A stretch of 64,000 nt of DNA from an uncultured Clostridia bacterium (GCA_947599825.1 CANQFS010000002.1:8669-72668), one strand, 5' to 3'. Positions 13,988-58,400 are shown, counted from the stretch's first letter. Notes: generated from the sequence alone by a model not told the origin. Program-made: numbers and translations.

Positions 13988-16413
<2,426 letters not shown>

Positions 16414-17018: not shown

Positions 17019-17027
17019 GCCTTTTAT

Positions 17028-17297: not shown

Positions 17298-17341
17298 GTT
17301 TTTTCACTCCCTTCTTATAGGTTACTTGTTCTCTTTATTTT

Positions 17342-17812: not shown

Positions 17813-17917
17813 ATAGTACACCTCCTCTTATTTGCAATACTCGCTAAGCATAAAATACTAGGCAGCTAACATATTTGTTAGCATTTTAGGCCCGACTCAG
17901 GCGGCTTACAAGTTAAT

Positions 17918-17946
17918 ATTTTAACATATTTATCCTGTTTTGTCAA
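17918..17946 (-). promoter_or_regulatory. rplU promoter, followed by a structured leader of about 95 nt
   Basis: The minus strand reads TTGACA-17-TAAAAT. The leader (17822-17915) contains GCCGCCTGAGTCGGGCC and a hairpin, and may be an L21-leader-like element. Confidence 0.45.
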
Positions 17947-18050
17947 CGATTATTAGCAAATTTTACAAAAACAGTATAGCATTTTCATATTCTTTTAATT
18001 TAAGCTTCCGTTTTGATATTTTTTCTTTATATCTATTATAACACTAAATG

Positions 18051-18764: not shown

Positions 18765-18818
18765 ATTTGTTCTCCGTTTTTCATAAAAAGTGTATTTTGA
18801 TTGTAATGATATTATTTT

Positions 18819-23206: not shown

Positions 23207-23364
23207 TTTTTCTCCTTTTCTAAACCATATGTATGGTATTTATACTTCTTTTACCGGTTACTTCTTTTATTATACCATATTTTACATAACATTGCAAATG
23301 TGGTTAATCTACTCCTACTAAGCTTTTTATGAATTCTATTTTTCTTACAATAATTAAGCTAAAA

Positions 23365-23420
23365 AAAAGCGAGCCTAAGATTTTCTAACAAATGGAAATT
23401 TTAAGAAAATCTAAGGCTCG
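23365..23420 (-). repeat. Dispersed palindromic element (GCGAGCCTAAGATTTTCT...AGAAAATCTTAGGCTCGC)
   Basis: Nearly identical to the copy at 51755 and to the inverted copy at 13896. Confidence 0.55.
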
Positions 23421-23478
23421 CCATATTTATCGTCTGCGGAAAGTCCTCCTTCAAGGAGAACTTTCCTACTATATAAAA

Positions 23479-29760: not shown

Positions 29761-30285
29761 TTAAACTAATTGTAAAATAACTACTTCTGCTGCGTCTCCT
29801 CTTCTTTGTCCTACTTTTACAATACGTGTGTATCCACCTACACGGCCTTCGTATTTTGGAGCAATTTCATTGAATAGTTTTGCAGGTAAGTCAATGTTAT
29901 TTCCCTTTTCGTCTTTTACTTTATTAAGCATTCTCATCATTTTTCTTCTTGCATTTAATCTTGTTGGCATATCTTTTTGTCTTTTTTCTACTTTTTCTTC
30001 TTTTACGACTCTTAGATATTCTTTGCCATTTTTACTTTTTACTAATTCTGTTTCTTTATTTCCTTTGCTATCTAATTTTGCTTTTACAACTTTTACATCT
30101 ACTGTTTCAAAGTTATCTTTTTCTTTAATTGCTAAGGAAATAATGCTATCAGCCATTGCTTTTAATTCTTTGGCTCTTGCTTCTGTGGTTTCAATTTTTT
30201 CATGTAAAATTAAGTCTGTTAATCCACTTTTTAGCATTGCTTTACGGATATCAGTTGTTCTACCTAATTTTCTGTTGATTGCCAC
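29761..30285 (-). CDS. rplQ: 50S ribosomal protein L17 (with an internal insertion of about 50 aa)
   Basis: A GTG start after AAAGGAGGAG. It has conserved N-terminal ([13 protein letters not shown]) and C-terminal ([17 protein letters not shown]) regions. Confidence 0.8.
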
Positions 30286-30377
30286 TTTATTCTCCTCCTT
30301 TTCCTCGGTAAGGAACACATCTTTTTCTCATCTTAGTTTTTAAGTGTCTCCCTATCTTTTAATAATTATTATTTCTT

Positions 30378-33799: not shown

Positions 33800-33975
33800 T
33801 TTATAATTATTGCTCATGATTTTGTTTATGATTATTGCTCATAATTATTTTTTTATAATTTTGTTTATAATTATTGCTCATAATTATTTTTTTATAATTT
33901 TGTTTATAATTATTGCTCATAATTATTTTTTTATAATTTTGTTTATAAGTTTGCTTATAATTGTTTTCAAAATTC
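33800..33975. repeat. 39-bp tandem repeat of about 4.5 copies in the map-infA spacer
   Basis: The unit is ataattattgctcataattatttttttataattttgttt. It creates a spurious 74-aa low-complexity ORF. Confidence 0.7.
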
Positions 33976-34057
33976 CTTGATTTTTCTATGTTTTTACGCG
34001 TTTTAAGATACAATTTTGCAATTGTATCCATAATAACTACTATAGTATATAATATTT

Positions 34058-34828: not shown

Positions 34829-34907
34829 TTTTTCTTCCTTTCTTCAAAGGGGTGTCCCAAATTGTCCCATTTGTCGCAATTGGGGACTGTCCCAAATTGT
34901 CCCTGTC

Positions 34908-35573
34908 CTAATTGTCCATCAAATATTCTTTTACTTCTTTTGCTACGTCTTCTGAGGTTTTGCCTGAGTGCAAATTTAGTTTTACAGCATATAATAAGTC
35001 TTGTGCTTTGTAATAATTGACTAATTGGGCAGATGTTTCGTGATATGTTTTTAATCTTTGCTTTACTGTTTCTATGTTATCATCTTCTCTTTGTACTAAT
35101 TTACTTTGGCAAATATCGCAGATTCCTTCTTGTTTTGGCTTTTTGAATTCTAAATTATAGACTTCTCTACAATTTATGTTTGAGCATACTCTTCTTTTCA
35201 CAATTCTATCTATAATATCTTCGTCAGATAGTTCTAATTCTACTGCTATGTCTATTTTCTTTCCTTGCTTTTTTAAAAAAGTATCAAATGCTTCTGCTTG
35301 CACGATGGTTCTTGGAAAGCCATCTAATATGACACCATTTTTACAATCTGGCTCTTGCAATCTTTGTTCTACAAGTTTTATTGCTAAATCATCTGGTACT
35401 AAATTTCCTTTTGATACATAAGATTCAATTTGTTTTCCTATTTCTCCTGCTTTTTTTATATAACTTCGAAATAGTTCTCCACTGGATAAATGCGTAATTC
35501 CTAATGATTCAGATAACATTTTTCCTACGGTTCCTTTTCCTGAACCTGGTTTGCCTAACATGACAATATACAT
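34908..35573 (-). CDS. adk: Adenylate kinase
   Basis: A P-loop GKPGSGKGT and a zinc-binding lid CxxC...CxxC. Confidence 0.9.
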   Translation of the reverse strand: MYIVMLGKPGSGKGTVGKMLSESLGITHLSSGELFRSYIKKAGEIGKQIESYVSKGNLVPDDLAIKLVEQRLQEPDCKNGVILDGFPRTIVQAEAFDTFLKKQGKKIDIAVELELSDEDIIDRIVKRRVCSNINCREVYNLEFKKPKQEGICDICQSKLVQREDDNIETVKQRLKTYHETSAQLVNYYKAQDLLYAVKLNLHSGKTSEDVAKEVKEYLMDN

Positions 35574-35734
35574 TTGCTACTTACTCCCTTCTCTTTTGCT
35601 TTTACTTTACTATTATACCATTTTTTAGCATACAAGTATACTATTTTTTATAAAAAAATAGATGCTTTTATTTTGCATCTATTTTTCTATTTTTCAATTT
35701 TTAATTCACAATCTAGTTTTAAAAAGAAGCAAGC

Positions 35735-35840
35735 AGTGCTAGGAAAGCTAGGCAAATAACCGGAGGCGTACGTGCTGTAGCCAAAGGATTATTTGACCGA
35801 CGCTTGACAACGCAATGCGATGCTTATTTTTCAAAACTAT
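35735..35840 (+). repeat. E-family repeat element copy 1 (TTGCTAGG...hairpin...TTGACAACGCAAtGcgATGC)
   Basis: Shares conserved termini with the copies at 38935, 45632 and 45215 (inverted). Confidence 0.55.
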
Positions 35841-37588: not shown

Positions 37589-37696
37589 TTTAGGATTACA
37601 CCTCCTCTTTTTATTTGTGGGATTTTTCCCTTTTATACAGTATCAGAATGAAAGTTTCATCTTATCTATTCTTAATTCTGACTTTTTCATTAATAT

Positions 37697-37729
37697 ACAT
37701 TTCTTTTTCTCTTTGCTAAAAAGAAATGT
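37697..37729 (-). promoter_or_regulatory. Perfect 12-bp hairpin in the S5-L15 spacer
   Basis: The stem acatttcttttt/aaaaagaaatgt with loop ctctttgct. No U-run follows, so it is more likely a processing or structural element than a terminator. Confidence 0.35.
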
Positions 37730-37749
37730 ACAAGATTGAAAGATTTTCT

Positions 37750-37860
37750 ATTAAAAATAATATTTTAAATATTCTAAATATTATTTTTAATATTCTAAAT
37801 ATCATTTTTAATATTCTAAATATTTTTTTAATATTCTAGATATTATTTTCAATATTTTCT
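37750..37860. repeat. Tandem repeat of about 21 nt, 5 copies, where rpmD (L30) would normally sit
   Basis: The unit is attctaaatatNatttttaat, between rpsE and rplO. Confidence 0.65.
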
Positions 37861-38350
37861 ATAAAATTTCTTCTACTTTCTTTCCTCTTTTTGCTGCTAC
37901 TTGTTCGATTGTTTGCATTTTCTTTAATCCTTCGATTGTAGCATATACTACGTTTCTTGGGTTATTTGTTCCTAATACCTTTGTACGGATATCTCTGTAT
38001 CCTGCAAGTTCAATAACTGGTCTTACGCTTCCTCCTGCTATGATTCCAGTACCTTCTGCTGCTGGTTTTAGCATAACGTTTGCGCTACCAAATTTTCCAA
38101 TATATTCGTGTGGTATTGTTGTTCCTACAATTGGAACTTCTATTAAGTTCTTCTTTGCTTCTTGAATTGCTTTCTTGATAGCATCTGGAACTTCTGCTGC
38201 TTTTCCATTTCCTACTCCTACATGTCCTGCTTCGTCTCCTACAACAACGACTGCACTAAAGCGGAAAGTTCTACCACCTTTTACAACTTTTGCAACTCTA
38301 TTGATTGCAACAACTTTTTCTTTTAATTCTGGTGTATTTTCTTCGTGCAC
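37859..38350 (-). CDS. rpsE: 30S ribosomal protein S5
   Basis: A GTG start after GGAGGG ([27 protein letters not shown]). Confidence 0.85.
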
Positions 38351-38359
38351 TGTATTTTT

Positions 38360-38455
38360 CCCTCCTTTTTTCTTAAGGTAAGGGAACACATCTTTACTTT
38401 TACGTCACTTTCCTTAGTAACAAGATTTGTTTCCTATTATGAATAAGTGATGCAG
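38360..38455 (-). promoter_or_regulatory. L-family structured leader element upstream of rpsE
   Basis: The sense strand reads CATCACTTATTCATAATAGG...AAAGATGTGTTCCCTTACC...GGAGG. Confidence 0.5.
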
Positions 38456-38492
38456 TAATTTAATGTTCTCCTTATTCTTTTTTCTTTTTAAT

Positions 38493-38852
38493 TTAAAACT
38501 TTAATCCTGCTTCTCTTGCAGCATCTGCTAATTCTTTTACAACTCCGTGATAAATATATCCTCCTCTGTCATATACAACAGATTTGATATTTTTATCTAA
38601 TGCTCTTTTTGCTATTAAAGTACCTACTTCTTTTGCAGCTTCTTTATTGGCATGTTTATTTTTTACTTCTTTATCTAATGTAGAAGCTTGTGCTAAAGTT
38701 ACTCCTTTAACGTCATCAATGACTTGAACAAAAAGATTTTTATTGCTTCTATAAACACATAGTCTTGGACGTTCAGCAGTTCCACTGATTTTTCTGCGAA
38801 CTCTAATATGTCTTCTAGTTCTTTCTAATTTACGATTTACTTTAGTAATCAT
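38493..38852 (-). CDS. rplR: 50S ribosomal protein L18
   Basis: 119 aa. Confidence 0.9.
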
Positions 38853-38934
38853 ATTTTTCTCCTTTCTACTAATGTAACAGCATTAGTAATTTAGATAGTT
38901 TATAAGTTATTATGAAACAAAGCAAAAGTGGTAT

Positions 38935-39035
38935 ATTGCTAGGAAAGCAAATAAAAATTTTTGAGATAATACGAGTTTGTATATCGAAAAAATTTTTATG
39001 CAGCTTGACAACGCAAGATGCCGCTTTTCATTTGT
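38935..39035 (+). repeat. E-family repeat element copy 2
   Basis: Reads ATTGCTAGGAAAGC...long AT hairpin...GCTTGACAACGCAAGATGC. Confidence 0.55.
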
Positions 39036-39037
39036 TT

Positions 39038-39577
39038 CTACTTCTTACCTGCTTTACCTTCTTTTCTTCTAATATGCTCATCTGCATATTTAATACCTTT
39101 ACCATGATATACTTCTGGTGGTCTCTTTGTTCTTACTACTGCTGCTGTTTGACCAACTGCTTCTTTATCTATTCCTTTAACTATAATTGTATTTGGGTTT
39201 GGAACATCAAATGTAATTCCTGCAGGTTCTTCCATTTCTACTGGGTGAGAGTAACCTAAATTCATTACTAATTTCTTTCCTTGTTTTTGTGCTCTATATC
39301 CAACACCAACAATTTGTAATTCTTTTTGATATTCATTACGAACACCTTCTATCATGTTTGCTATTAAAGTTCTTGTTAATCCGTGTAAACTTCTATTTGC
39401 TGCTTCATCATCTGGTCTTGTAACATGAATTACATTTCCTTCAATTGCAACACTCATGTTTTTGTGGATTTCTCTTTCTAATGTTCCTTTAGGTCCTTTT
39501 ACCGTTAAATGTGTTCCATCTAATTTTACTTCTACACCTTCTGGTACGGTAATAGGTTTATTTCCTATTCTTGACAT
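39038..39577 (-). CDS. rplF: 50S ribosomal protein L6
   Basis: 179 aa. Confidence 0.9.
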
Positions 39578-39607
39578 GACTGGTTTTCCTCCTTTATTTA
39601 TTTTATA

Positions 39608-40006
39608 TTACCATACGTAAGCTAGTACTTCTCCACCTAATCCTTCATTTCTTGCTTCTTTATCTGTTTTTATTCCTTTTGAAGTAGAAATTAAGGCTAT
39701 TCCTAGTCCATTTAATACTTGTGGTAATTCGTCCTTTGATGCATATACTCTTAGCCCTGGTTTGCTAATTCTTTTTATTCCGTCAATGACTCTAGCACCT
39801 TTTTCATCATATTTTAATGTAACTCTTATGATTCCTTGTGCATCATCTTTTATTTCTTCAAATGATTTGATATATCCTTCTTCAAATAGAATTTTAGCAA
39901 TTGCTTTTTTCATATTAGAAGCTGGAACATCAACAGTTTTATGTTTTGAACTATTAGCGTTTCTAATTCTTGTTAGCATATCTGCTATTGGGTCTGTTGT
40001 GTTCAT
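39608..40006 (-). CDS. rpsH: 30S ribosomal protein S8
   Basis: Starts [18 protein letters not shown]. The longer ORF on the track was trimmed. Confidence 0.88.
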
Positions 40007-40037
40007 ATTAAATATTTCCCTCCTTTTTTCCTTTATT

Positions 40038-40223
40038 CTACCAACTTGCTTTTTTAACTCCAGGAATTTCACCTTTATGTGCTAATTCTCTAAAACATAC
40101 ACGGCAAATTCCATATTTTCTAATATAAGCATGTGGTCTTCCGCAAAGTTTGCATCTATTATATTCTCTTGTTTTGTATTTTTGCTCTCTTGCTTGCTTA
40201 ACTTTTAAAGATTTCTTAGCCAT
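40038..40223 (-). CDS. rpsN: 30S ribosomal protein S14 (Zn-ribbon type Z)
   Basis: 61 aa with CxxC...CxxC. Confidence 0.9.
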
Positions 40224-40357
40224 TAGCTATTTTCTCCTTTCACTAATTTGACAGGGGGACTCATTTTACATTTTTGTCACTTTCACTTGGGCTAAGGTAT
40301 GTTTTCTCCCTTGTGAATGAGTGTTCAAATGTTTTACTATTCTCCTGCTATTTAATT
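40224..40357 (-). promoter_or_regulatory. L-family (subfamily B) structured element between rplE and rpsN
   Basis: The sense strand reads CATTTGAACACTCATTCACAAGGG...ACATACCTTAGCCC...AAGTGAC, paralogous to the element upstream of rplN. Confidence 0.5.
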
Positions 40358-40897
40358 TTAATTTTTGAATGGCATTCCTAATAATGTTAGTAATTCTCTT
40401 GCTTCTTCGTCTGTTTTAGCGGTAGTAACAAATATAATATCCATACCTCTAATTTTATCTACTTTATCATATTCGATTTCAGGGAAGATTAATTGTTCTT
40501 TTACACCCATAGAGTAGTTTCCTCTACCATCAAAAGAATTTTTTGATACTCCTCTAAAATCTCTTACTCTTGGAAGTGCTACATTAAATAGTTTGTATGC
40601 AAAATCATACATTTTTCCTTGTCTTAATGTAACTTTGCAACCCATATTAACGCCTTCTCTTATTTTGAAAGCAGCAATTGCTTTCTTTGCTTTTGTTACA
40701 ATTGGTGTTTGACCAGTTATAAGTTTAATATCATTGATTGCGTTTTCTAATGACTTTGGATTGTCTTTGATATCTCCTAATCCAACATTGATTACGATTT
40801 TTTCTAATTTTGGAACTTCCATAACTGATTTATAATTGAATTTTTTCATTAATGCTGGAATTACTTCTTTTTGATATTGTTCTTTTAATATTTCCAT
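40358..40897 (-). CDS. rplE: 50S ribosomal protein L5
   Basis: 179 aa. Confidence 0.9.
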
Positions 40898-40933
40898 AAT
40901 CTATGTATTTCCTCCTTTCATTTGACACAAGTC

Positions 40934-41242
40934 TTATTTAATTTTTGCGTTGCATTTTTTACAAACACGTACTTTTTGATCTTTTTCTATTTCATAACCA
41001 ATTTTTGTAGCCTTTCCACATTTTGGGCATACTACATTTACTTTACTTGCGTGAATAGCGCATTCTACTGGTATAATACCGCCTTCTTCACCTTGTTTTC
41101 TTGGTTTTACATGTTTTTTTCTAACATTTATACCTTTTACTATAATTTTCTCTGTTTTTGGTATTACTTCTAATACTTCTCCTGTTTTACCTTTATCATT
41201 TCCAGATAAAACTTTAACGTTATCACCTTTTTTTATTTTCAT
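40934..41242 (-). CDS. rplX: 50S ribosomal protein L24 (with a C-terminal CxxC...CxxC)
   Basis: A KOW domain plus CPKCGK...CKKCN. Confidence 0.88.
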   Translation of the reverse strand: MKIKKGDNVKVLSGNDKGKTGEVLEVIPKTEKIIVKGINVRKKHVKPRKQGEEGGIIPVECAIHASKVNVVCPKCGKATKIGYEIEKDQKVRVCKKCNAKIK

Positions 41243-41373
41243 TTTTCTTTTTTCACCTCTTTTTTTAGAATTTTAACTTCTATTAAAGAAACTTTTTTTA
41301 ATAATTCGCATATTAATTTTTAATGCTTTAACTTGTAAGTGCAAATATTTATTAATAATTTATTGCTAACAGA

Positions 41374-41742
41374 TTAAAGAACTTCTGGAGCTAAAGATAA
41401 AATTTTCATATAATCTTTATCTCTTAACTCTCTAGCAACAGGGCCAAATATACGAGTTCCTCTTGGGTTTTTATCTTCTCTTATAATAACTGCTGCATTT
41501 TCATCAAATCTTACATAGGATCCATCTGCTCTTCTAATTGGCTTCTTTGTTCTTACTACTACTGCTTTTACAACATCACCTTTTTTTACAACTCCACCAG
41601 GTGTTGCAGTTTTAACAGAAGCAACGATTACGTCACCAACACCAGCATATTTACGATAAGATCCACCTAAACATCTAATGCACATAATTTCTTTTGCACC
41701 AGTGTTATCAGCTACTTTTAATATGGATTGTTGTTGTACCAT
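41374..41742 (-). CDS. rplN: 50S ribosomal protein L14
   Basis: 122 aa. Confidence 0.9.
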
Positions 41743-41947
41743 TTTCGCTTTTCCTCCTTTACTCTATCTTGTTTCAATTATCTAACGGTGACACATCTTT
41801 ACCTATGGTCATTTCTTTTTGGATAAGATATGTCCCACGCCGAGCTTTTTACATTATTTATACCTTTTGGTCACTTCTACACGGGCTAAGGTATGTTACC
41901 TACCCTTGTGATTAAGTGTTCAAATGGTTTGAATATTCCCTATTTTT
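41743..41947 (-). promoter_or_regulatory. L-family long composite element upstream of rplN
   Basis: It contains both the subfamily-B core (CATTTGAACACTTAATCACAAGGG...CCTTAGCCC) and the subfamily-A motifs (GGGACATATCTTATCC, AAAGATGTGTCACC) ahead of the GGAGG. Confidence 0.5.
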
Positions 41948-42217
41948 TTATTTTATAATAGCCTTTTCTACTATTTTTACAACTCTGAATCTTTTATCTT
42001 TTGATAAAGGTCTTGTTTCCATGACTTGTACTTTATCTCCGATTCCACATTCATTGTTTTCATCATGAGCTTTTAATGTATAAGTTCTTTTTTGAATTTT
42101 TCCGTAAGTTTTATTTTTCTCGTTTGTCTCTACAGCTACTACTACAGTTTTGTCCATCTTATTAGATTTTACAATCCCTGTAAAAGTTTTACGAAGATTT
42201 CTTTCTTCCATATTCAA
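41948..42217 (-). CDS. rpsQ: 30S ribosomal protein S17
   Basis: The true start is probably MEERN, 2 codons in. Confidence 0.88.
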
Positions 42218-42242
42218 ATCTCCTTTCTTTCAATGTTTTCCT

Positions 42243-42455
42243 TTATTTATTGTCTTCTAATTTTCTTTCTGTTAATACAGTATTGATTTTTGCAATGTCT
42301 TTTTTCACTTCTTTAATTTTCATAGGATTATCTAATCCGTTTGTTGCTAAGCTAAATCTTAGTTTGAATAATTCAGATTTTAATTCTCCTAATTCTTTTT
42401 CTAGATCTGGTGAAGACATTTTTCTTATTTCATTAATCTTCATCACTCTCACCAC
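42243..42455 (-). CDS. rpmC: 50S ribosomal protein L29
   Basis: The true start is probably MKINEIRK. Confidence 0.85.
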
Positions 42456-42873
42456 CTATTTCAGTTTCTTTTTTAACAAATTTACACTTAACAGATAGCT
42501 TATTTCCAGCAAGTCTTAGTGCTTCTCTTGCTGTTTCTTCAGGTACTCCTGCTATTTCAAACATAACTCTTCCTGGTTTTACAGCTGCTACCCAATATTC
42601 TACTGCTCCTTTACCTTTACCCATACGAGTTTCTGCTGGTTTCTTTGTTATTGGTTTATCTGGGAAGATTTTTATCCAAACCTTTCCACCTCTTTTAATA
42701 TAACGAGTCATAGCAACACGGGCAGATTCAATTTGGTTTGTTGTAATTAAACCTGCTTCTAATGTTTGAAGTCCATATTCACCATCTGATACATAATTTC
42801 CTCTTGTTGCCTTTCCTCTATTTCTACCTTTTTGTTGTTTTCTATATTTGGTTCTTTTTGGCATTAATGGCAT
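42433..42873 (-). CDS. rplP: 50S ribosomal protein L16
   Basis: 146 aa. Confidence 0.9.
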
Positions 42874-43532
42874 TATTTGTCTCCTCCTTCCACTTTCTTT
42901 TTAGCTGGAAGAATTTCTCCTTTATAAATCCAAACTTTTACACCGATTTTTCCATATGTTGTATCTGCTTCTGCAAATCCATAGTCAATATCAGCTCTTA
43001 AAGTTTGAAGTGGTATGGTTCCTTCTTTGTAGAATTCTGTTCTTGCCATATCTGCTCCACCTAATCTTCCAGATACTGAAGTTTTAATTCCTAAAGCACC
43101 TGCTTTCATTGTTTTTTGCATACATTGTTTCATGGCTCTACGGAAGGAAATTCTTCTTTCTAGTTGTCCTGCAATGTTTTCTGCAACTAATTGTGCATTA
43201 ACATCTACATCTTTTACTTCAACAATATTTAAGTTTACTTCTTTTCCTATCATTTTTTGTAATTCATTTTTTAATGTTTCAGCTAAGTTTCCACCTTTAC
43301 CAATTACTAATCCTGGTTTTGCTGTGTAAACATTAACTTTTACAAATTTAGCAGTTCTTTCAATTTCAACTTTTGAAATTCCGCTAATATATAATTTTTT
43401 CTTTACATACTCACGAATTTTGTGGTCTTCTACTAGGTAGTTTGCAAAGTCTTTTTTGTTTGCATACCATTTTGAATCCCAGTCTTTTATAACACCAACT
43501 CTTAATCCATGAGGATCCATTTTTTGTCCCAT
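42873..43532 (-). CDS. rpsC: 30S ribosomal protein S3
   Basis: 219 aa, starting [13 protein letters not shown]. Confidence 0.9.
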
Positions 43533-43551
43533 TGTATATAAGCTCCTTTCT

Positions 43552-43920
43552 TTAATCTCTTTCTCTTAATACGATTGTAATATGGCTTGTTCTTTTACGA
43601 ATTCTAACAGCAGAACCTTTTGCAGCTGGTCTAATTCTTTTTAGAGTTGGACCTTGGTTTGCATATACTTCTGCAACGTATAATTTTTCATGTGCCATAT
43701 GGTGATTGTTTTCAGCGTTTGCAATAGCTGATTTTAATAATTTTTCTACTATTTCAGAGGCAGCCTTTGGTGTAAATTTAACAATTGCTAATGCTTCATC
43801 TACACTTTTTCCTCTAATTAAATCTATTACGATTTTTACTTTTCTACTTGAAATTCTAGCATATTTAAGGGTTGCTGCGGCTTCTGGAATAATAACTTCT
43901 TGCATTTCTTCTTTTTCCAC
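43552..43920 (-). CDS. rplV: 50S ribosomal protein L22
   Basis: A GTG start 8 nt after GGAGG. Confidence 0.85.
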
Positions 43921-43926
43921 GTTATT

Positions 43927-44017
43927 TTCCTCCATTCCTCGGTAAGGGGACACATCTTTCCCTTATGTCATTCCTCTAGGGACAAAATATGTCCCCTTCT
44001 TATGAATAAGTGATGTC
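43927..44017 (-). promoter_or_regulatory. L-family structured leader element upstream of rplV
   Basis: The sense strand reads TGACATCACTTATTCATAAGAAGGGGACATATTTTGTCCCTAGAGGAATGACATAAGGGAAAGATGTGTCCCCTTACCGAGGAATGGAGG. Confidence 0.55.
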
Positions 44018-44061
44018 AGTATTTTTGTGTTCGCCCTATTTTTACTTTTATTTTTATTTTT

Positions 44062-44340
44062 TTACTGTTTTGTTGTTGTTTTCTCTCCTGCATGACCTTT
44101 AAAAGTTCTTGTTGGAGCGAATTCTCCTAATTTATGACCTATCATTTCTTCTGTAATATAAACTGGCACATGTTTTCTACCATCATGAACAGCAATTGTG
44201 TGTCCTACCATTTGAGGGTATATAGTAGAAGCTCTTGACCATGTTTTTAATACTTCTTTTGCTCCTGTTTCGTTCATTGCTTCAATTCTTTTTAATAGTT
44301 CTGGAGCAACAAATGGAGTCTTTTTACTTGATCTTGACAT
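44062..44340 (-). CDS. rpsS: 30S ribosomal protein S19
   Basis: 92 aa. Confidence 0.9.
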
Positions 44341-44356
44341 ATCTTATTTTCCCTCC

Positions 44357-45184
44357 TTATTTTCTTCTCTTAACAATCATTTTGTTAGATTTTTTATTTT
44401 TCTTTCTAGTCTTGTATCCTAGAGCTGGTTTACCCCAAGGTGTCATTGGTCCTGCGTGTCCTACTGGAGCTCTACCTTCACCACCACCATGAGGGTGATC
44501 TACTGGGTTCATAACAGAACCTCTAACTGTTGGACGAATTCCTAAATGTCTTGTTCTTCCTGCTTTACCTAGTTTTACGTTTTCATGATCTGTGTTTCCT
44601 ACAGTTCCGATAGTTGCTCTACATCTTGTCATAACTAATCTCATTTCTCCAGATGGAAGTCTTACGTGAGCATATTTTCCTTCTTTAGCCATTAATTGTG
44701 CTTCTTGGCCAGCTGCTCTTACCATTTTTCCACCTTGGCCTGGATTTAATTCTATGTTATGAATCATAGTACCTACTGGAATTGCTTCAATTGGCATTGC
44801 ATTTCCTGGTTTAATATCTGCTTTTTGTCCAGATACTACTTTGTCACCATCGGTTAGTCCTACTGGTGCTAAGATGTAGCTTAAAGTTCCATCTTCATAT
44901 TTTATTAAAGCGATGTTAGCACTTCTGTTTGGGTCATATTCAATACCTACTACAGTTGCTTCCATATCATCTTTGTTTCTTTTAAAATCAATTACTCTAT
45001 ATTTTTGTCTATTTCCTCCACCTTGGTGACGAACTGTTACTCTACCATAAGAGTTTCTTCCTGCTTTTTCTTTCTTTACTGTTAATAAAGATTTTTCAGG
45101 AGTTTTTTTGGTAATTTCGTCAAATGTAGAAACTGTTGTGTTTCTTAATGATGGGGTTGTTGGTCTAAAGTGTTTCATTCCCAT
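44357..45184 (-). CDS. rplB: 50S ribosomal protein L2
   Basis: Starts [11 protein letters not shown], with AAGGAG 7 nt upstream. The N-terminal extension on the ORF track was rejected. Confidence 0.88.
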
Positions 45185-45214
45185 TTTGTTTCTCCTTTCG
45201 GATTTATGAAAAAC

Positions 45215-45302
45215 TTCGTCTTGCGTTGTCAAACTTCGCTTCGAAATTTCTTGGTGTACCAATGTACACCTGCGGATTTCTTGCTCGTTTTCCTAGCAAT
45301 AC
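45215..45302 (-). repeat. E-family repeat element copy 4, in inverted orientation relative to copies 1-3
   Basis: The plus strand reads GTCTTGCGTTGTCAAAC...GGTGTACCAATGTACACC...TTTCCTAGCAAT. It forms an inverted pair with copy 3 around the small ORF. Confidence 0.55.
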
Positions 45303-45410
45303 TCGTTTTTGCTAAATCCTCTTACTTTCTTAATATTTACGGTTATTTTTCCTGCCCCGCATTAGCAGATATTCTTTCTTTTCCGAGTTATTTCTCGATA
45401 AAATCTTTAT

Positions 45411-45584
45411 TTATCTTTCTTCTCTTCTTTTTAAAATTTCTTCTCCATTTACAAATCTTTCTAATGCTTTGTCAAATATTTCTTCTTGATTTTCTGGTGG
45501 TAAACAATATTTTGCTATAAATCCATCTTCTGGAATTTTATTTCTTTTTAAGAATTCTTTTCTTTTTTCACTTGTTTCGCTCAT
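45411..45584 (-). CDS. Small hypothetical protein (57 aa) inserted between rplW and rplB
   Basis: An ORF flanked by inverted E-elements, with RBS GGAAGGTG. No homology was recognised. Confidence 0.35.
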   Translation of the reverse strand: MSETSEKRKEFLKRNKIPEDGFIAKYCLPPENQEEIFDKALERFVNGEEILKRREER

Positions 45585-45631
45585 ATTTTTCACCTTCCTC
45601 TATTTTTAGACAAACGAATCAAAATTAGTAG

Positions 45632-45745
45632 ATTGCTAGGCAAATTTAATAATTAACACCTGAGGCGTACGTGTGTACGTTGAAGGTTTAATTATTAAAT
45701 TTAACGACGCAAGATGCTGATTTTCATTCGTTTAGGCTAAGCACC
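45632..45745 (+). repeat. E-family repeat element copy 3
   Basis: Reads ATTGCTAGGCAAAT...18-bp AT-rich stem around CGTACGTGTGTACG...TTAACGACGCAAGATGC. Confidence 0.55.
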
Positions 45746-46084
45746 CATGAATTCATCAATTGAATCTTTGTATTTCTTTGTCATTTTTGTAGCTTTTCCG
45801 CCTTTAGCAAGATATGTTTTTTCAGCTGGATTAGTATCAATTGTTACAATTGCTTTTTTCCAATCTGAAGTTTTTCCTTCATATCTTCCCATTCTTTTCA
45901 TTTTTCCTTTTACAGTAACAGTATTTACTTTTAATACTTTTACTTCAAATAATTTTTCTACTGCGTTTGCAATATCAACTTTTGTTGCTTTTTTATTTAC
46001 TTCAAAAGTGTATTTTCCTTCTTGCATTCCATCATTACTTTTTTCTGTTATAACAGGTGCAATGATAATATCTTCTGGTTTCAT
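45737..46084 (-). CDS. rplW: 50S ribosomal protein L23
   Basis: 115 aa. Confidence 0.9.
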
Positions 46085-46707
46085 TATGCATACACCTCCT
46101 CTAATTTCTTAACAGTATCTAGAGTAATTACTAAATTTTTGTATTTTAATAAGTCATATACGTTGATAGTATTTACTAATGTAGTTTTTACTCCTTCAAT
46201 GTTTCTTGCAGATTTTTGAACGTTTTCGTTCTTTTCTGGTAATAACATTAATGTTTTACCTTCTACTTTTAAGTTATTTAAAATCTTAACCATTTCTTTG
46301 GTTTTAATTTCTTTCATATCTAATTTGTCAACTACTACTAATTCATTTTCTAATACTTTTGAGCTTAGAACTGATTTAATAGCAAGTCTCTTTTCTTTTT
46401 TATTTACAGTGTAGCTGTATGAACGTGGTTTTGGTCCTAAAGCGATACCACCTTTAATCCATTGTGGTGCTCTAATAGAACCTTGTCTTGCTCTACCTGT
46501 TCCTTTTTGTCTCCATGGTTTTCTTCCACCACCGCTAACTTCTGATCTTGTCTTAGTACTTTGTGTACCTTGTCTTTGATTTGCTAAGAAGTTTACAAGT
46601 ACGCTATGTACGACAGCTTCGTTTGGTTCAATTCCAAAAATAGCTTCGTTTAACTCTACTTCTTTTACTTTCTTTCCTTCTATACTATATACGTCTATTT
46701 TAGGCAT
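46084..46707 (-). CDS. rplD: 50S ribosomal protein L4
   Basis: 207 aa. Confidence 0.9.
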
Positions 46708-46724
46708 TTACTTTTCCTCCTTCC

Positions 46725-47354
46725 TTATGCTTTTACACTTGTTTTTATTTTTAAGATAGCACCTTTTACTCCTGGTACACTACCTTTAACTAAAATTACG
46801 TTTTTATCCATATCAACACGTACTACGTCTAAGTTTTGGATTGTAATGGTTTGAACTCCCATGTGTCCTGGTAATTTCTTTCCTTTAAATACTCTACCTG
46901 GTGTTGAAGTTGGTCCCATTGAACCTGGTCTTCTGTGATACATAGAGCCATGTCCCATTGGTCCTCTACTTTGACCATGACGTTTGATAACACCTTGGAA
47001 ACCTTTTCCTTTTGAAGTTCCTTGAACATCAATTTTATCTCCAGCTACAAAAGTATCAGCTTTAATTTCATCTCCTACTTTATAGCTTTCAATTGAATCT
47101 ACACGAAATTCTCTTAAGTGTTTCTTTGGTGTAACACTTGCTTTTGCATAATGTCCTTTAACTGGTTTGTTTACTTTACTTTCTTTTACTTCTCCGAAGC
47201 CTAATTGAACTGCGTCATATCCATCTGTTTCAACTGTTTTAACTTGTGCTACAACGCATGGTCCTACTTCGATTACAGTAACTGGAATAACTTTTCCTGT
47301 TTCATCAAAGATTTGAGTCATTCCTATTTTCTTTCCTATAATTGCTTTTTTCAT
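46725..47354 (-). CDS. rplC: 50S ribosomal protein L3
   Basis: 209 aa. Confidence 0.9.
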
Positions 47355-47450
47355 TTTAAATTTCCTCCTAACTTATATTGGCTAATATGTTTCATTTAAT
47401 ATTAGCTTGTAAATTAGCTTATTTAAGTATTGCTAATTTTGTTTTTTAAA

Positions 47451-47777
47451 CTATAATTTGATTTCGATATCAACACCAGCTGGTAAATCAATTTTCATTA
47501 AACTATCAACTGTTTTTTGTGTTGGATAAAGAATGTCAATTAATCTTTTATGTGTTCTCATTTCAAATTGCTCTCTTGAATCTTTGTGTTTGTGTGGAGA
47601 ACGTAAGATTGTAACGATTTCTTTTTGTGTTGGTAATGGAATAGGTCCTGAAACTTTTGAGCCTGTTCTTTTAGCAGTTTCTACTATTTGTTCAGCAGAC
47701 TTTTCTAGAAGTTCAGCATCATAAGCTTTTAGTCTTATTCTCATTTTCTCACTTCCTACTTTGTTTGATGTTGCCAT
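47451..47777 (-). CDS. rpsJ: 30S ribosomal protein S10
   Basis: Starts [20 protein letters not shown] with GGAGG 8 nt upstream. The ORF-track extension was rejected. Confidence 0.88.
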
Positions 47778-47784
47778 TTGTTTT

Positions 47785-47878
47785 TCCTCCTTTTTCTTCG
47801 GTAAGGGTACGCATCTTTCCTTAACGTCATTTTCACTAAGGATAAGATACATTCCCTTCTTGTGAATAAATGATGTCA
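47785..47878 (-). promoter_or_regulatory. L-family structured leader element upstream of rpsJ
   Basis: The sense strand reads TGACATCATTTATTCACAAGAAGGGAATGTATCTTATCCTTAG...TTAAGGAAAGATGCGTACCCTTACCGAAGAAAAAGGAGG. Confidence 0.55.
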
Positions 47879-48202
47879 TTTTTTTGATGCTCGCCTTCCT
47901 AAAATATTTTGCTAGCAGAAAGTTTTAAAACGCACCCTGGTGTTTCTTTATTTACCAATATAAAACCCAATGATTGCATGAAAAACGATTCTAAGAATCG
48001 CATGTTTATCTAGTACGGAGCTTTTCTTCGCTATCGCTTGAAAATTCCTACTATCTAAAAATCTTGGGATAAGTGCTTTTATTTTTTTATAAAACTTACC
48101 GCCTGGTCTAAGCCATGACATACTCCATAGAAGTTCCCTCCACCTTACGCATTGTTAAGATGTAGCCACATTCTACTTCATCGCTTTGTTTACATGCTTA
48201 TT

Positions 48203-48396: not shown

Positions 48397-49518
48397 TTAA
48401 TTAGCTTGTTTTAGTTCTTTTTTCATTTTTTCTAATTCTTTTTGATTTGTCCCTGTCACTGCTTTTATTATTTTATCATCTAATTTTAACTTTATCATTT
48501 TTCTTATTGTTTCTATTCTATTCTCTATTTTTCCTTCTATTTTTCCTTCTTCTATTGCCTTTACTCTTATTTCTAGCCTTTCTCTTCTTTCATTTTCATG
48601 TATCCTTTCTGCTAATGTCATACTTTTTTCCTCCTTCTTTGCTTTATTTAATACTGTTTCTAGCTGTTCTTGCTCAATTATTCCCTCTGCTTTATATCTT
48701 ATTATGTCTTTTATTTTTTCTAAATTTTTATTTTTACTTGCTTTTAATATTTCTTCTACATTCTTTACAAACTCTACTGAATTTTCACTTTTTTCTAGTA
48801 ACATTACTTTTGATAATATATTATCTTCCTTTAATAGTTCTTCTTTACTATATGCGTGAATATCTACCAAACTTATTTCTTCTTTTTCTTCATACCATTT
48901 TGCTTCTTCTTTTAGCTCTTGCATACTTAATTTTGCATTCCACTTCTCTTCTCCTGTATAAATGATAATTGGTATTATTAATGGATATTTATACGATTTT
49001 CTTTTTCTTTCCTTCTCATCTATTATAACTCGCATAATTTCAATACTATATTCCATCATTCTATATGCTATAGAATAGTCTATTGTTGACTGATGTTCTA
49101 TTAAGAAAAAGATGTTTTTACCTTTTATTTTATATATAATATCAGATTCTCTATCTTGATAATTACTTGTAATAAATCTATTTGAATATAGTTCTATTTC
49201 TTCCTTTATTTCTTGTTTTGGTTTTAGGGCTTTATTTATTAGACTTAATGCTTCTTCTTTTGTCATTAATATATCTCGAATTATTTTATCATGTTCATTA
49301 TTTTTGTCATAGATATATTCTGCTGGCTCTTCTTTCAGTATACATTGTTTTTCTTCTGGCTCCATTAATTCATATAATTCATCTAAATATGTTTCTTTTC
49401 GTTCACTAAAATATTTGTAGTTCTTCTTTTTTAATTCTTCTTTTTTATTTCTTAGTTCCTCTTTTTGCTTTTGAAATTCTTCATATTTTAGATAATCTTT
49501 GTATGTAATTTTTAGCAA
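48397..49518 (-). CDS. Rpn-family recombination-promoting nuclease / putative transposase (YhgA-like)
   Basis: A PD-(D/E)xK-like core (DIIYKIK...IFFLIEHQS) and a C-terminal DUF4351-like repeat region (IEEGKIEGKIEN). Confidence 0.65.
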   Translation of the reverse strand: MLKITYKDYLKYEEFQKQKEELRNKKEELKKKNYKYFSERKETYLDELYELMEPEEKQCILKEEPAEYIYDKNNEHDKIIRDILMTKEEALSLINKALKPKQEIKEEIELYSNRFITSNYQDRESDIIYKIKGKNIFFLIEHQSTIDYSIAYRMMEYSIEIMRVIIDEKERKRKSYKYPLIIPIIIYTGEEKWNAKLSMQELKEEAKWYEEKEEISLVDIHAYSKEELLKEDNILSKVMLLEKSENSVEFVKNVEEILKASKNKNLEKIKDIIRYKAEGIIEQEQLETVLNKAKKEEKSMTLAERIHENERRERLEIRVKAIEEGKIEGKIENRIETIRKMIKLKLDDKIIKAVTGTNQKELEKMKKELKQAN

Positions 49519-51672: not shown

Positions 51673-51754
51673 TTTGTAGATTAAAAATCAAACATACTAA
51701 TATTAGCAAATTTTAATTAATGGCTGTCCAAATGAATTGCCAAGTAAAAAAGCG

Positions 51755-51810
51755 AGCTTAGGATTTTCTAACAAATGGAAATTTTAAGAAAATCTAAGCT
51801 TCGCATAATT
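51755..51810 (-). repeat. Dispersed palindromic element copy (degenerate)
   Basis: Reads GCGAGCTTAGGATTTTCTAACAAATGGAAATTTTAAGAAAATCTAAGCTTCGC, matching the copies at 23365 and 13896. Confidence 0.5.
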
Positions 51811-53893: not shown

Positions 53894-53986
53894 GGAAAGA
53901 TTTGGGACGCGTTCATTTCTTTCCATCTTTTTCTTTTATTGTAAATATATAAAATGGAAAGATTTGGACGCGTCCCAAATCTTTCC
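53894..53986. repeat. REP-like palindromic elements (GGAAAGATTTGGGACGCGTCCCAAATCTTTCC), two copies
   Basis: A partial copy at 53894-53924 and a near-perfect palindrome at 53956-53986, between the convergent murC and spoIVB genes. Confidence 0.6.
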
Positions 53987-53987
53987 A

Positions 53988-55428: not shown

Positions 55429-58400
55429 TTAATATCCGCATATTAACTGTCCTTCTTTGTTGCAATTTAATATACCTACCTCACATTTTCCACCATAATG
55501 TTCGTTACACTTATCTCCTGGTGTTGCTTTTTTTTCATGCCAATCCCATACAGAATTTCCTACCAAATGGCCGTTTTCACATTTATGGAATTCATGGTTA
55601 TCATATGGAGTATATAATTGAGCTCCACACGGTCTATAACACGTTCCTTCCCAAGGTTGACCACTTTCATGTTCTATATGTTTATGGTAACATGAATCAG
55701 TATGAACGTGTTCAACTTTAACTGTACCTTTAGAGTAATCTATATTACTTATATTTCCCGCATTATCCTTTACCCATGCATAATAGGTTATATTTACACT
55801 TAAACTAAATGAATTATATCTTTGGAAATATGAAGGTTGTGCAGTAGTTGTTGTTAGCGCATATCCTGCTATTCCTGAGCCATCTCCATCTGTTGCATTT
55901 ATCCAAGCAGTAGTACCTGATGCAGATACAGAATTAACAGTTGGTGGTGTTTTATCAATATTAGTAATTTGTCGTTGTGCTATTCCATTATATTGTCCTG
56001 TACTATCTACTATTTTTGCACAGAAGGTGTTATTTTCATCAAATACTTGAGTTGATGTATTACTCCATGTTCTTCCACCATCTTTGCTTGTTACTATGCT
56101 AAATTCGTTAGATATGTTTGCACTTGCTGTTACAGTTACATATTGATTAGTCCAATCATGTGGGGTATAAGTAATTGTTATGTTTGATGATAATGGTACT
56201 GTTTGTGTTGTAATTCTACTATTTGAATTTATATTACTAATATTTCCAGCTCCATCTCTTACCCATGCATAGTATGTTGTTGATTGTGTTAAATTACCTA
56301 TTGTATTTGAAGACGTGAATTGACCTAATGCTGGTTTTGAAGGAGTTGTTGTTACTGCATATCCTGTTACTTGTGAGCCTCCTACATCTGTTGCAGTTAT
56401 TGTTGCGCTATTGGTTGTTGTTTCTACTGCATCAACAGTTGGTGGCATTTTATCTATATTACTAATTGCTAATTGCGCCATTCCATTTGATTGTCCTGTA
56501 CTATCCTCTAGTTTTGCATAGAATGTTCCATTGCTATTAAATGTTTGACTTGTTGCATTTGTCCAATTTCTTCCATTTGTACTTGTTTTTAATGTATATC
56601 CATCTACTGTTGTATATGCAAATGCTACTACGTTTCCATTAGTCCACTTTTGTGGATTATATGCAAATGTTATATTTCCTGTTGCTGATGTTACTTGTAC
56701 TTTAAATGTATTTTTAGAATCAACATTGTTTATATTTCCTGCATTATCTTTTACCCATGCATAGTATGTTATATTTTGTTTTAAGCCTGTAAATGTATTT
56801 GTTGTTTTGAAGCCTGTTGTTGGTTTTGAATTATTCGTTGTCATTGCATATCCTGCTATTCCTGAGCCTCCTGCATCTGTAGCTATTATTGTTGCACTAT
56901 TGCTTGTTACAGATACATTACTTATGGTTGGTAGTATTTTATCAATATTGGTAATTGATAATTGTGCCATTCCATTTGATTGTCCTGCACTATCTACTAA
57001 CCTTGCATATACTATTCCATTATTATCTAATGTTTGACTTGCTGTAGTGGTCCATGAAATTCCATTCTTACTTGTTTGCAATGTGTATCCACTTATAGTT
57101 GCTGTTGCTGTTACTGTTACACTTGCATTGGTCCAAGTGGTTGGAGTATAGGTGAAGATTATATTTCCTAATGATGATGCTACTTCTCCTACTGTAAATG
57201 GACTTCCATCACTTATATTTCCTGCTTTATCTATTACCCATGCATAGTATACTGTATTTTGCTTTAAGCCTGTAAATACATTTGATTCTTGGTAGCCATC
57301 TGTTGGTCTTGTATTTGTTTCTGTTATTTTATATCCTGCTATTACTGAACCACCTGCATCTGTTGCTATTATTGTTGCACTATTAGTTGTTGTTTCTACT
57401 CTTTGAATAATTGGTGGTGTTTTATCTATATTGTTTACTGTTAATTGTGCTACTCCATTTGATTGTCCTGTACTATCTACTAGTTTTGAATATATTGTAC
57501 CATTGTCTGTTAATGTTTGTGTTGTCGTTTTCTCCCATGTTATTCCATCTTTACTTGTTTCTATGGTGTAATCATTTTCCGTTGTGTCTGATGTTACTAC
57601 TACATCTCTATTTGTTGGGCCTTGTGGTTCATACTTAAATGTTATATTTCCTTCTGATTTTGCTACACTTCCTATAGTGAATTTTCTTCCTTCACTTACA
57701 TTTCCTACATTATCTTTTACCCATGCATAATATGTTGTATTTTGTGCTAGATTTTCAAATACATTTGATTTTTGGAATCCTGCTACTGGTTTTACATTTG
57801 CTTCTGTTATTGCATATTCTGCTATTCCTGAACCGTTTGCATTATCTGTTGCTATTACTGTTGCTCTATTACTTGTTATTTCTACATTACTGATTGTTGG
57901 TGCTATTTTGTCTATATTTGTTACTTTAACTGATGCTGTTTCACTTGTATAGTCTTTTATTCTTGCATATACGGTTCCATTTTGTGTTAGTTTTTGACTT
58001 GACGTATCTTGCCATGTACTTCCATCTGTACTTGTTTGTAGTGTCATTCCTCCTACATTTGTTGCTGTTACTATAACATCTCCATTTGTCCATGTACTTG
58101 GTGTTACATTAAATATAATATTTCCTATTACTTTTGTTGTAAATTGTTGACTCTTACTTATATTTCCTATTTCATCTTTTACCCATGCATAGTATGTTCT
58201 TTCTGGTATTAGTCCTGTTTGAGTTACTGTTATTTGAGATTGTTTTGTGCAGTTTGTGAAGCTTGATGGTGCTACATTTGCTTCTGTTACTGCGTAACCT
58301 ACTATATCATTTACATCTCCTACTGCTCTTATTGTTACTGTAGTTGGTGTTGGGGTTACTGATGTTATTACTGGCTCTGTTCTATATGTATATAAGCTAT

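Follow-up and report, generated by a model that had tools for sequence, protein, structure and literature searches.

Introduction

Miniature inverted-repeat transposable element (MITE)-like families, such as ERIC/IRU, Correia/NEMIS, RUP, and bcr1 of Bacillus cereus, are multi-copy, co-transcribed sequences of ~100-150 nt that fold stably and can affect their neighbors. REP/REPIN sequences (RAYT) and PATEs of the IS200/IS605 type insert in an orientation-specific manner by a short motif, leave no classical duplication, and can be lost seamlessly; REPs are typically located downstream of genes. Few bacterial gene arrays are as compact and conserved as ribosomal-protein operons, whose regulation relies on tight translational coupling. 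Here, we describe a repeat, termed family A, that occupies intercistronic gaps of the S10-spc-alpha ribosomal-protein cluster in a 64,000-nt stretch of DNA from an uncultured Clostridia bacterium (GCA_947599825.1, CANQFS010000002.1:8669-72668; hereafter, the window) and ends in the Shine-Dalgarno sequence (SD) of the downstream gene. We interpret family A, with moderate confidence, as a lineage-restricted, proliferating, SD-carrying structured intercistronic repeat rather than a gene-specific autoregulatory leader.

Family A resembles the MITE-like families in that its sites vary between close strains, subfamilies and decayed copies occur, and its folds are stable. It differs from them in lacking good terminal inverted repeats and a clear variable target duplication, in being sense-oriented in 100% of cases, and in having two co-varying partners for one strand. 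It also ends in an SD, at a spacing of 23-35 nt between main helix and start codon, and the copies found all precede translation or secretion genes. Like REP sequences and PATEs, family A is hairpin-based and strand-specific (G·T-tolerant on one strand), which would fit a GGAG-adjacent insertion and the sense-only bias. Unlike REP/REPIN, the copy alignments contain no paired subterminal hairpins, GTAG-type head, or inverted doublet, and no Y1 transposase domain was detected among the scanned open reading frames (ORFs) of the fetched loci.

Ribosomal-protein leaders (RF03136 and the S8, L4, and S4 operators) share with family A the location of a structured RNA before S10-spc-alpha cistrons and the conserved helices by the SD. 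Family A, in contrast, precedes many genes at unfixed positions and has no Rfam match, and a separate, weak S10 leader candidate is present at the same locus. Translational riboswitch or attenuator platforms likewise place an anti-SD-like strand with two exclusive, co-varying SD-like partners upstream of the SD. In family A, however, both predicted folds occupy the anti-SD strand and leave the SD free, masking is predicted to be weak, no aptamer-like core was identified, and the element is mobile and decaying.

Results

Family A Copies End at the SD of the Downstream Gene

The S10-spc-alpha cluster runs on the minus strand of the window from rpsJ (ATG at 47777) to rplQ (stop at 29761), where unrelated genes follow. 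The operon is unusually loose, with many junctions of 100-555 nt that normally measure <40 nt. A preliminary description of the window had reported homologous stretches in long gaps before rpsJ, rplV, and rpsE, and a partial one before rplQ. Both this gene map and the homology were borne out, and the four stretches show 70% mean column identity when aligned. We built an nhmmer profile from the three full copies (rpsJ, rplV, and rpsE) and ran it on the window. The profile recovers its source copies at E = 5.5e-33, 1.5e-32, and 1e-27, as expected by construction, and also detects the rplQ partial, together with a degenerate copy before rpsN and a composite before rplN that the earlier list had missed (Table 1). 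No copies were found in the other 46 kb of the window; the weak matches outside the operon (E > 0.01) are unconvincing.

The unit spans ~115-135 nt, from an SD-like segment (R1) at the 5' end to the real SD at the 3' end. In the 5'-to-3' direction, it comprises R1 (AGGAGAACAUUA), the 5' strand of P1, seg2 (GGGGACAUAUCUU) with seg3, the 3' strand of P1, seg4 (AAGAUGUGUCCCC), a tail, and the SD. R1 is purine-rich and, in variants of AGGAGAACAUUA, precedes nearly every copy. The 5' strand of P1 pairs with the element interior, and seg3 is the short local hairpin partner of the G-rich seg2, while seg4 is C-rich and anti-SD-like. The real SD lies 6-10 nt before the downstream start codon, which in 39 of 41 copies follows the end of the main helix by 23-35 nt. 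Copies at different junctions share a conserved tail and SD (CCCCUUACCGAGGAAAAGGAGG in subfamily A1; CCCCUGACAUUAGAAAAGGAGG in A2/A3), so this SD belongs to the element, which supplies or duplicates that of the gene. Within tandem arrays, each unit takes as its R1 the SD of the one before.

One Strand Co-varies with Two Alternative Partners

The preliminary description had proposed a paralogous family in which every copy ends at the gene's SD and one strand has alternative partners, through either a long-range pairing of AAGGGGACAUAU with AUGUGUCCCCUU or a local hairpin. These proposals are sustained by the copies. The long-range pairing exists and constitutes the minimum free energy (MFE) fold of the rpsJ (z = -3.4) and rplV (z = -4.76) copies, and the local hairpin is a real alternative. 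Over 38 copies, the 13-bp seg2:seg4 helix is 88.5% paired and P1 is 78.7% paired, compared with 35-56% for slid controls. Several positions of seg2:seg4 show compensatory changes, such as U-A in 17 copies versus C-G in 15, and A-U in 32 versus G-C in 4. In subfamily A1, the seg2:seg3 local hairpin is 93% paired. In addition, seg4 is complementary to R1, and P1 crosses the long helix, so that the two form either a pseudoknot or alternatives.

We compared the duplex energies of cognate strands with those of 5000 within-subfamily permutations. Cognate strands were favored for seg2:seg4 (-17.5 vs -16.2 kcal/mol), R1:seg4 (-8.7 vs -7.8 kcal/mol), and P1 (-8.2 vs -6.5 kcal/mol), with 0/5000 permutations as good in each case (p <2e-4), and for seg2:seg3 (-5.75 vs -5.35 kcal/mol, p = 0.014). 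The mutually exclusive helices, in which seg4 pairs with seg2 or with R1, are thus each supported by covariation. Within the 'AUG/GCG' lineage (the rpsJ, tuf, and secA copies), seg2 CA->UG, seg3 G->A, and seg4 U->C have changed together and the helices survive. The rpsJ copies of this lineage show, as read by eye, a matching A-to-G change in R1; the match is less clean in the tuf copy, and R1 is absent from the secA copy.

Two global folds are available to the element: a nested rod (R1:seg4 + P1 + seg2:seg3) and a long hairpin (seg2:seg4, with or without a P1 pseudoknot). The choice that RNAfold makes between them varies by copy. Folds of the sense strand have greater stability than those of the antisense strand (-25.0 vs -22.1 kcal/mol, p = 2e-5), G·U outnumbers A·C (86 vs 40), and one U·G is kept in 34/38 copies. 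The greater sense stability and the G·U excess indicate that the structure belongs to the sense strand.

RNAalifold predicted no pairs from the 38-copy alignment, probably because the helices compete. For this reason, the named helices were counted directly and the duplex-energy permutations were used. All-against-all mutual information is dominated by the subfamily split and provides no independent evidence. MAFFT leaves R1 unaligned owing to its variable offset, making a column-wise comparison of R1:seg4 uninformative.

Family A Is Sense-Oriented and Found in Uncultured Clostridia

An exact-pattern scan with AAAGATGYGTNCCCTTACC, covering one genome per species, returned 25 loci. Twelve are true copies, all in uncultured Clostridia metagenome-assembled genomes (MAGs). 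The other 13 are chance matches, with sequence unlike the element and mostly in unrelated bacteria, two being in Clostridia-type MAGs without the element; we estimated ~35 chance matches for such a pattern. The true copies precede ribosomal-protein genes of this operon and, elsewhere, rplL (two loci), rpsG, tuf, secA, and rimO. Five loci have copies outside this operon (L002, L005, L011, L012, and L013; loci in relatives are given as L numbers). The preliminary description had held that many copies unrelated to ribosomal genes would favor a simple MITE. Copies outside the operon do exist, but all of them precede translation or secretion genes, which is unlike a simple MITE.

We collected 80 related operon loci via the L24 protein and searched all sequences with an iterated nhmmer profile and a covariance model, the latter suggested by the preliminary description. 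Together with the pattern scan, these searches extend the family beyond the window, to ~48 sense copies in 19 of 92 sequences (window included); related metagenome and MAG loci contribute ~45 copies. All copies are sense-oriented. The antisense matches overlap sense copies and reflect the palindromic helix; the lone exception is a core-only hairpin of ambiguous orientation in a distant Oscillospiraceae (L018). At the element-bearing operon loci, 44/44 model matches (E < 0.01) fall inside the operon span (133 kb, 227 gene starts) and 0 in the 62.7 kb beyond. The copies are distributed over at least 17 junction types. Among the 80 related metagenome operons, 8 carry the family and 72 have no copy. 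The carriers, taken with the pattern-scan MAG loci, form two identity groups (>=91% and ~80-85%) with many element-free operons between them. Within the window, no copies precede Obg, two aminoacyl-tRNA synthetases (class I, Trp/Tyr-type; class II, Asp/Lys/Asn-type), TsaD, or MreB.

Rfam returned nothing on the elements, either at the gathering score (window and seven relatives) or at E up to 5 (operon). Viral contigs and phage and plasmid collections contained no copies and thus gave no sign of a phage or plasmid vector. A full-text literature search found no matching description, including in papers on ribosomal-protein leaders (PMC7247131) and gut structured RNAs (PMC8040213). We therefore found no prior description of family A in Rfam or the literature and regard it as a structured intergenic repeat with unusual properties.

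Copies Spread within Genomes and Are Lost

At the related locus L019, which has 97% mean amino-acid identity to the window, copies are present at the rpmC|rpsQ, rplX|rplE, and rpsH|rplF junctions, where the window has gaps of 25-36 nt. The same locus lacks the rpsQ|rplN copy of the window, with an 80-nt gap versus the 205-nt composite. The 'empty' rplX|rplE and rpmC|rpsQ sites of the window keep short pieces of the element ends, which identifies these sites as deletion remnants. For most copies, the nearest relative is a paralog in the same genome but at a different junction (L019, L007 with 90% identity, L064, and L072). Tandem arrays occur in L016 and L064, and in L013, a core hairpin is nested inside another. 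The decaying rpsE copy of the window has intact same-junction counterparts in L019 and L007, and the L023 stub, upstream of rplL, is of the same kind as the rplQ stub in the window. A multi-copy state, insertion polymorphism between close relatives, and subfamilies are all present. Family A is copied into new junctions within genomes and subsequently lost, including through internal deletions that leave R1+seg4 stubs.

Same-junction copies were compared with the synonymous third positions of the flanking genes, giving values of 0.94/0.96, 0.81/0.82, 0.87/0.88, and 0.76/0.76. As the same-junction divergence approximates that of synonymous sites, host-level constraint on the copies appears to be weak.

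The Real SD Is Predicted to Remain Largely Accessible

The real SD is ~60% unpaired in the free ensemble. Blocking seg2 alone leaves the SD accessibility unchanged, at 0.58, as R1 takes over. Blocking both seg2 and R1 lowers the accessibility from 0.60 to 0.46 and raises the probability that the SD pairs with seg4 from 0.09 to 0.39. No fold state sequestering the SD emerged from these calculations, in which the SD is ~60% unpaired with or without seg2. The element is thus predicted to keep its anti-SD-like strand occupied and its SD free; a switch that masks the SD would be thermodynamically possible but weak.

We also considered other internal signals. An intrinsic terminator was rejected, as the copy sequences have no U-tract after the long helix, and an internal promoter was rejected because inspection revealed no -35/-10 pair at proper spacing. 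A leader peptide after R1 was likewise rejected by inspection, as the sole candidate start is AUU and the frame and stop vary between copies. A K-turn in P1 was dismissed, since P1 has no G·A/A·G pairs.

Discussion

Proposed Tolerance of an SD-Carrying Repeat before Essential Genes

The preliminary description had offered three ideas: repeated autoregulatory leaders, processing sites, and MITE-like insertions that bring their own ribosome-binding site (RBS). The third fits best, given that occupancy shifts among nearly identical genomes, copies from one genome group together, and different junctions share the SD-proximal tail. For a proliferating, SD-carrying repeat, we propose that the transcript would form a closed domain of its own, burying the decoy SD-like sequences together with the anti-SD-like strand while the real SD stays exposed. 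An essential gene would tolerate such an insertion before it only in sense orientation and only for as long as the pairing lasts. If survival requires the delivery of a working SD to an essential gene, the strict sense orientation and the constant start-codon spacing would follow. The pairing would be maintained if unpaired CCCCUU or exposed decoy SDs were harmful, or if the copying process needed the hairpin. Spread might occur by SD-targeted insertion or by SD-microhomology gene conversion/deletion, and the GGAG-to-GGAG unit would fit either. The restriction to ribosomal-protein genes, tuf, secA, and rimO could reflect a target preference (consensus-strength SDs or very high transcription) or selection. 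The same restriction, together with the two-partner pairing, makes a regulatory role possible.

Several observations weigh against this interpretation. No terminal inverted repeats of MITE quality are present: R1 and seg4 are complementary, with a mean duplex energy of -8.7 kcal/mol, but rely on G·U pairs and mismatches, and the tail and SD lie outside them. In one A3-type copy, ~11/15 R1/seg4 positions match by hand count. Neither is there a clear site-specific target duplication. The units are flanked by AGGAG-type motifs, and in a comparison of filled and empty sites, these look the same as an element-internal SD-like motif or SD-microhomology recombination would. In the window and the fetched loci, we found no nearby transposase or recombinase and no autonomous element sharing the ends. 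All of the true matches of the pattern scan (12/12), which was unbiased and genome-wide, precede translation or secretion genes, as those of a regulon would, and essential genes with high expression are not where a selfish insertion would be expected. Between same-junction copies, the long helix is 88.5% conserved, versus ~0.79 for synonymous sites and 66.5% for the rest of the element; this excess over the synonymous benchmark indicates that some constraint persists after insertion. One strand has two co-varying alternative partners, which is typical of RNA switches. The restricted gene set, the extra conservation of the long helix, and the dual co-varying partners are poorly explained by a proliferating, SD-carrying repeat. 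As to the data themselves, the covariation counts overstate the number of independent events, as copies share their descent within two or three subfamilies, and the sample is biased, since most loci were fetched for containing this operon.

Alternative Explanations

The main rival, which we regard as possible, though on balance unlikely, is that the copies constitute a dispersed cis-regulatory RNA switch and define a translation-apparatus regulon, in which a common trans factor would free seg4 from seg2/R1 to mask the SD. Candidate factors are free 30S subunits on the decoy SDs, a ribosomal protein or other RNA-binding protein at the GGGGACA/UGUCCCC helix, and a small molecule. The output would be reduced synthesis of ribosomal proteins, EF-Tu, SecA, or RimO, and mobility would amount to the recruitment of cistrons into the regulon. 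Such a switch would account for the placement of every copy found directly before a gene for translation or secretion, at the five loci outside the operon and in the L023 rplL stub as well, while Obg, the two aminoacyl-tRNA synthetases, TsaD, and MreB of the window have none. It would also account for the strict sense orientation with tight start-codon spacing, the covariation of each of the mutually exclusive pairings, and a helix sequence conserved beyond the needs of pairing. The rise in SD pairing with seg4 (0.09 -> 0.39) when both SD-like partners are blocked points the same way. However, the predicted masking is weak (0.60 -> 0.46) and needs two partners to be blocked at once. Moreover, occupancy varies between near-identical genomes, most operons of the clade have no copy, and decayed, truncated, and nested copies are common. 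The overall same-junction divergence equals the synonymous rate, and there is no terminator, no obvious conserved ligand pocket, and no Rfam match.

In a bolder form of this proposal, which we consider improbable, family A would be a mobile riboregulator that wires translation cistrons into a ribosome-sensing feedback. R1 and seg2 would act as decoys for free 30S subunits or a dedicated RNA-binding protein, and their occupation would release seg4 onto the SD. New genes would be recruited when the element inserts, strand-specifically, beside strong SDs on the non-template strand that is exposed in very highly transcribed operons. To our knowledge, no transposable, self-targeting translational operator has been described.

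We give a similarly low probability to an intercistronic mRNA processing or stabilizing module, likened to the 5' stabilizers of Bacillus. The spacer would be cut, and R1 (STAB-SD-like) and the hairpin would shield the new 5' end from a 5'-to-3' exonuclease, uncoupling the stability and expression of single ribosomal-protein cistrons. An SD-like motif without a usable start codon does lie at the 5' edge of almost every copy, very stable sense folds (mean -25 kcal/mol) lie directly 5' of the RBS, and the rpsJ and rplV copies fold into ~22-bp hairpins, sufficient for a double-strand-specific RNase. In the nested fold, however, R1 is predicted to be paired with seg4 and hence not free for 30S. 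Nor would this module explain the turnover, the tandem and nested copies, or the element-free majority of related operons.

Classical ribosomal-protein autoregulatory leaders, in which each copy binds the downstream-encoded protein or all bind one protein (L4 or S8) via rRNA mimicry, would suit the location before ribosomal-protein genes and the conserved structure, and such leaders are the commonest structured RNAs in these operons (PMC7247131); they are nevertheless essentially excluded by the distribution, as a single family is found before 17 or more different genes in addition to tuf, secA, and rimO, occupancy differs between relatives with 97%-identical proteins, most related operons have no copy, no Rfam ribosomal-protein leader matches even at E up to 5, a separate weak S10-Clostridia candidate lies upstream of the rpsJ copy, and the copies drift at a near-neutral, approximately synonymous rate.

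A Co-resident Repeat and Other Features of the Locus

The window also contains family B, an unrelated ~110-nt repeat that forms one long imperfect hairpin (core GCAUCUUGCGUYGUYAA...CCUAGCA) and has no Rfam match. Four copies are present in the window (Table 1), and 46 matches were found in the clade loci. Family B occupies other junctions of these operons, its position varying and both orientations occurring. With its long hairpin and both orientations, it looks REPIN/MITE-like, and much more REPIN-like than family A, which differs precisely in being orientation-locked and SD-linked. In the 555-nt rplW|rplB gap, two inverted family-B copies flank a 60-aa ORF (MSETSEKRKEFLKRNKIPEDGF...) that has its own SD and no Pfam match. 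The content of this gap may be a composite insertion; relatives also have family B there.

Larger insertions occur in the operons of relatives. L072 carries a gene for an Hpt protein and one for a hybrid histidine kinase/response regulator between secY and adk (15268-18977), and L045 carries a DUF4160/DUF2442 gene pair between adk and map (15717-16227). Transposases had been considered as the contents of these insertions and were rejected in view of these genes. The presence of family B in the spacers and of whole inserted genes in relatives indicates that these operons are generally permissive to insertions.

The S10-Clostridia leader candidate (Rfam RF03136) lies ~200 nt upstream of the rpsJ copy and contains the conserved single-stranded motifs of its family. 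Its score is below the gathering score, and no S10-Clostridia leader was found at the gathering score in seven related loci. If the match is real, the canonical operon leader is separate, and the repeat lies between this leader and rpsJ. Directly upstream of the leader region of the operon is a gene for a YhgA-like putative transposase (Pfam Transposase_31, E = 2.8e-29), which has no visible link to the repeats.

The window has ~29% G+C. SpoIVB, Obg, two aminoacyl-tRNA synthetases, MreB, and similar genes flank the operon and indicate a sporulating Firmicute, and the nearest public sequences belong to MAGs of uncultured Clostridia obtained from rabbit, rumen, and human gut. Within the operon, RplQ (~175 aa) has a long lysine/glutamate-rich internal insertion relative to typical L17. 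The rpsE|rplO gap is a 270-nt spacer at the usual place of rpmD (L30); it has no L30 ORF and contains four or five 21-nt tandem repeats of the AUAUUUAGAAUAUUAAAAAUA type. The map|infA gap contains three 39-nt tandem repeats with 96% identity inside a 74-aa ORF of NYKQNYKKIIMSN repeats, and it is doubtful that this ORF is a real gene. The adk|map spacer contains GGGACA-type motifs, four exact plus GGACA/GCGACA variants, at roughly 10-nt spacing (GGACAGGGACAAUUUGGGACAGUCCCCAAUUGCGACAAAUGGGACAAUUUGGGACACCCC). GGGACA is also the hexamer at the core of the G-rich strand of family A; GGGGACA is not enriched across the window (3 matches vs 1.8 expected). Outside the operon are a 1439-aa ORF with ~six repeats of roughly 483 nt and two small palindromic repeat families, one terminator-like (AAAAAAGCGAGCCUAAGAUUUUCU...AGAAAAUCUUAGGCUCGC) and the other of the type UGGAAACUUUUGGACGCGUCCCAAAUCUUUCCA.

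Table 1. Coordinates of family A copies and other features in the window (positions counted from its first letter).
Feature	Position	Strand	Score	Details
Full copy, subfamily A1, 'AUG/GCG' variant, upstream of rpsJ	47786..47900	-	covariance model 87.7 bits	R1 AGGAAGGCGAGCAUC 47900-47886; P1 5' strand near 47878-47862; seg2 (long-helix 5' strand) 47856-47844; seg4 AAAGAUGCGUACCC 47818-47805; tail UUACCGAAGAAAAA; SD GGAGG 47790-47786; rpsJ ATG 47777
Full copy, A1, rpsS|rplV gap, best preserved in the window	43929..44037	-	87.5 bits; MFE -33.7 kcal/mol, z = -4.76	R1 AGGGCGAACAC; seg2 AAGGGGACAUAUUUU; local hairpin arm UGUCCCU; seg4 AAAGAUGUGUCCCCUU; tail ACCGAGGAAU; SD GGAGG 43933-43929; rplV GTG at 43920
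Full but decaying copy, A1, rplR|rpsE gap	38361..38473	-	71.4 bits	R1 AAGGAGAACAUUA; seg2 mutated to GGAAACAAAUCUU; seg4 AAAGAUGUGUUCCCUU; SD GGAGG 38365-38361; rpsE GTG 38350
Degenerate copy, A2, rplE|rpsN gap	40234..40347	-	nhmmer 40344-40241, E = 1.7e-8; 66.3 bits	P0/P1 and local hairpin intact; long-helix complementarity lost (seg2 GAAAACAUACCUU, seg4 AAAAUGAGUCCCCC); SD GGAG 40237-40234; rpsN ATG 40223
Composite, rpsQ|rplN gap	41753..41941	-	nhmmer partials 41921-41863 and 41836-41785; 38.9 and 34.5 bits	A2-type 5' part (R1, P1, local hairpin; 41941-41852) without its own seg4; 3' part a core-only long hairpin 41836-41788, tail GAAACAAGAUAGAGUAAAGGAGG, SD 41757-41753
Internally deleted stub, rpoA|rplQ gap	30294..30353	-	nhmmer 30328-30292, E = 5e-4	R1/seg2-like AGGGAGACAC; seg4 AAAGAUGUGUUCCUU; A1 tail ACCGAGGAAAAGGAGG; SD 30298-30294; rplQ GTG 30285
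S10-Clostridia leader candidate, separate from the repeat	48096..48189	-	28 bits (gathering score 35.1); E = 0.0013 for 701-nt search	
Family B copy	45617-45728	-		
Family B copy	45206-45312	+		
Family B copy	38920-39032	-		
Family B copy	35727-35831	-		
rplW|rplB gap	45180-45740			60-aa ORF at 45593-45411
YhgA-like putative transposase gene	48397-49518	-		
rplQ	29761-30285	-		
rpsE|rplO gap	37589-37858			21-nt tandem repeats at 37739-37869
map|infA gap	33807-34031			
adk|map spacer	34830-34912			
1439-aa ORF	55429-59748	-		
Small palindromic repeats (both families)	13886-13944, 23363-23421, 51746-51804; also 15287-15395, 53955-53987			

Significance of Family A

In this clade of uncultured, low-GC gut Clostridia, the ribosomal-protein operons contain structured insertions in large number. 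Among these, family A is unusual in inserting only in the sense orientation, in bringing its own replacement RBS, and in being seen only before translation or secretion genes. If it is merely tolerated, it shows what can survive before an essential gene, namely a self-closing element whose decoy SD and anti-SD strands are neutralized, and it would amount to a portable RBS/insulator cassette of natural origin. If it is regulatory, it would be an instance of a mobile RNA operator building up a regulon. In both cases, the family gives rise to false 'leader' predictions when RNAs are screened comparatively, and it is a marker of very recent genome change in these organisms.

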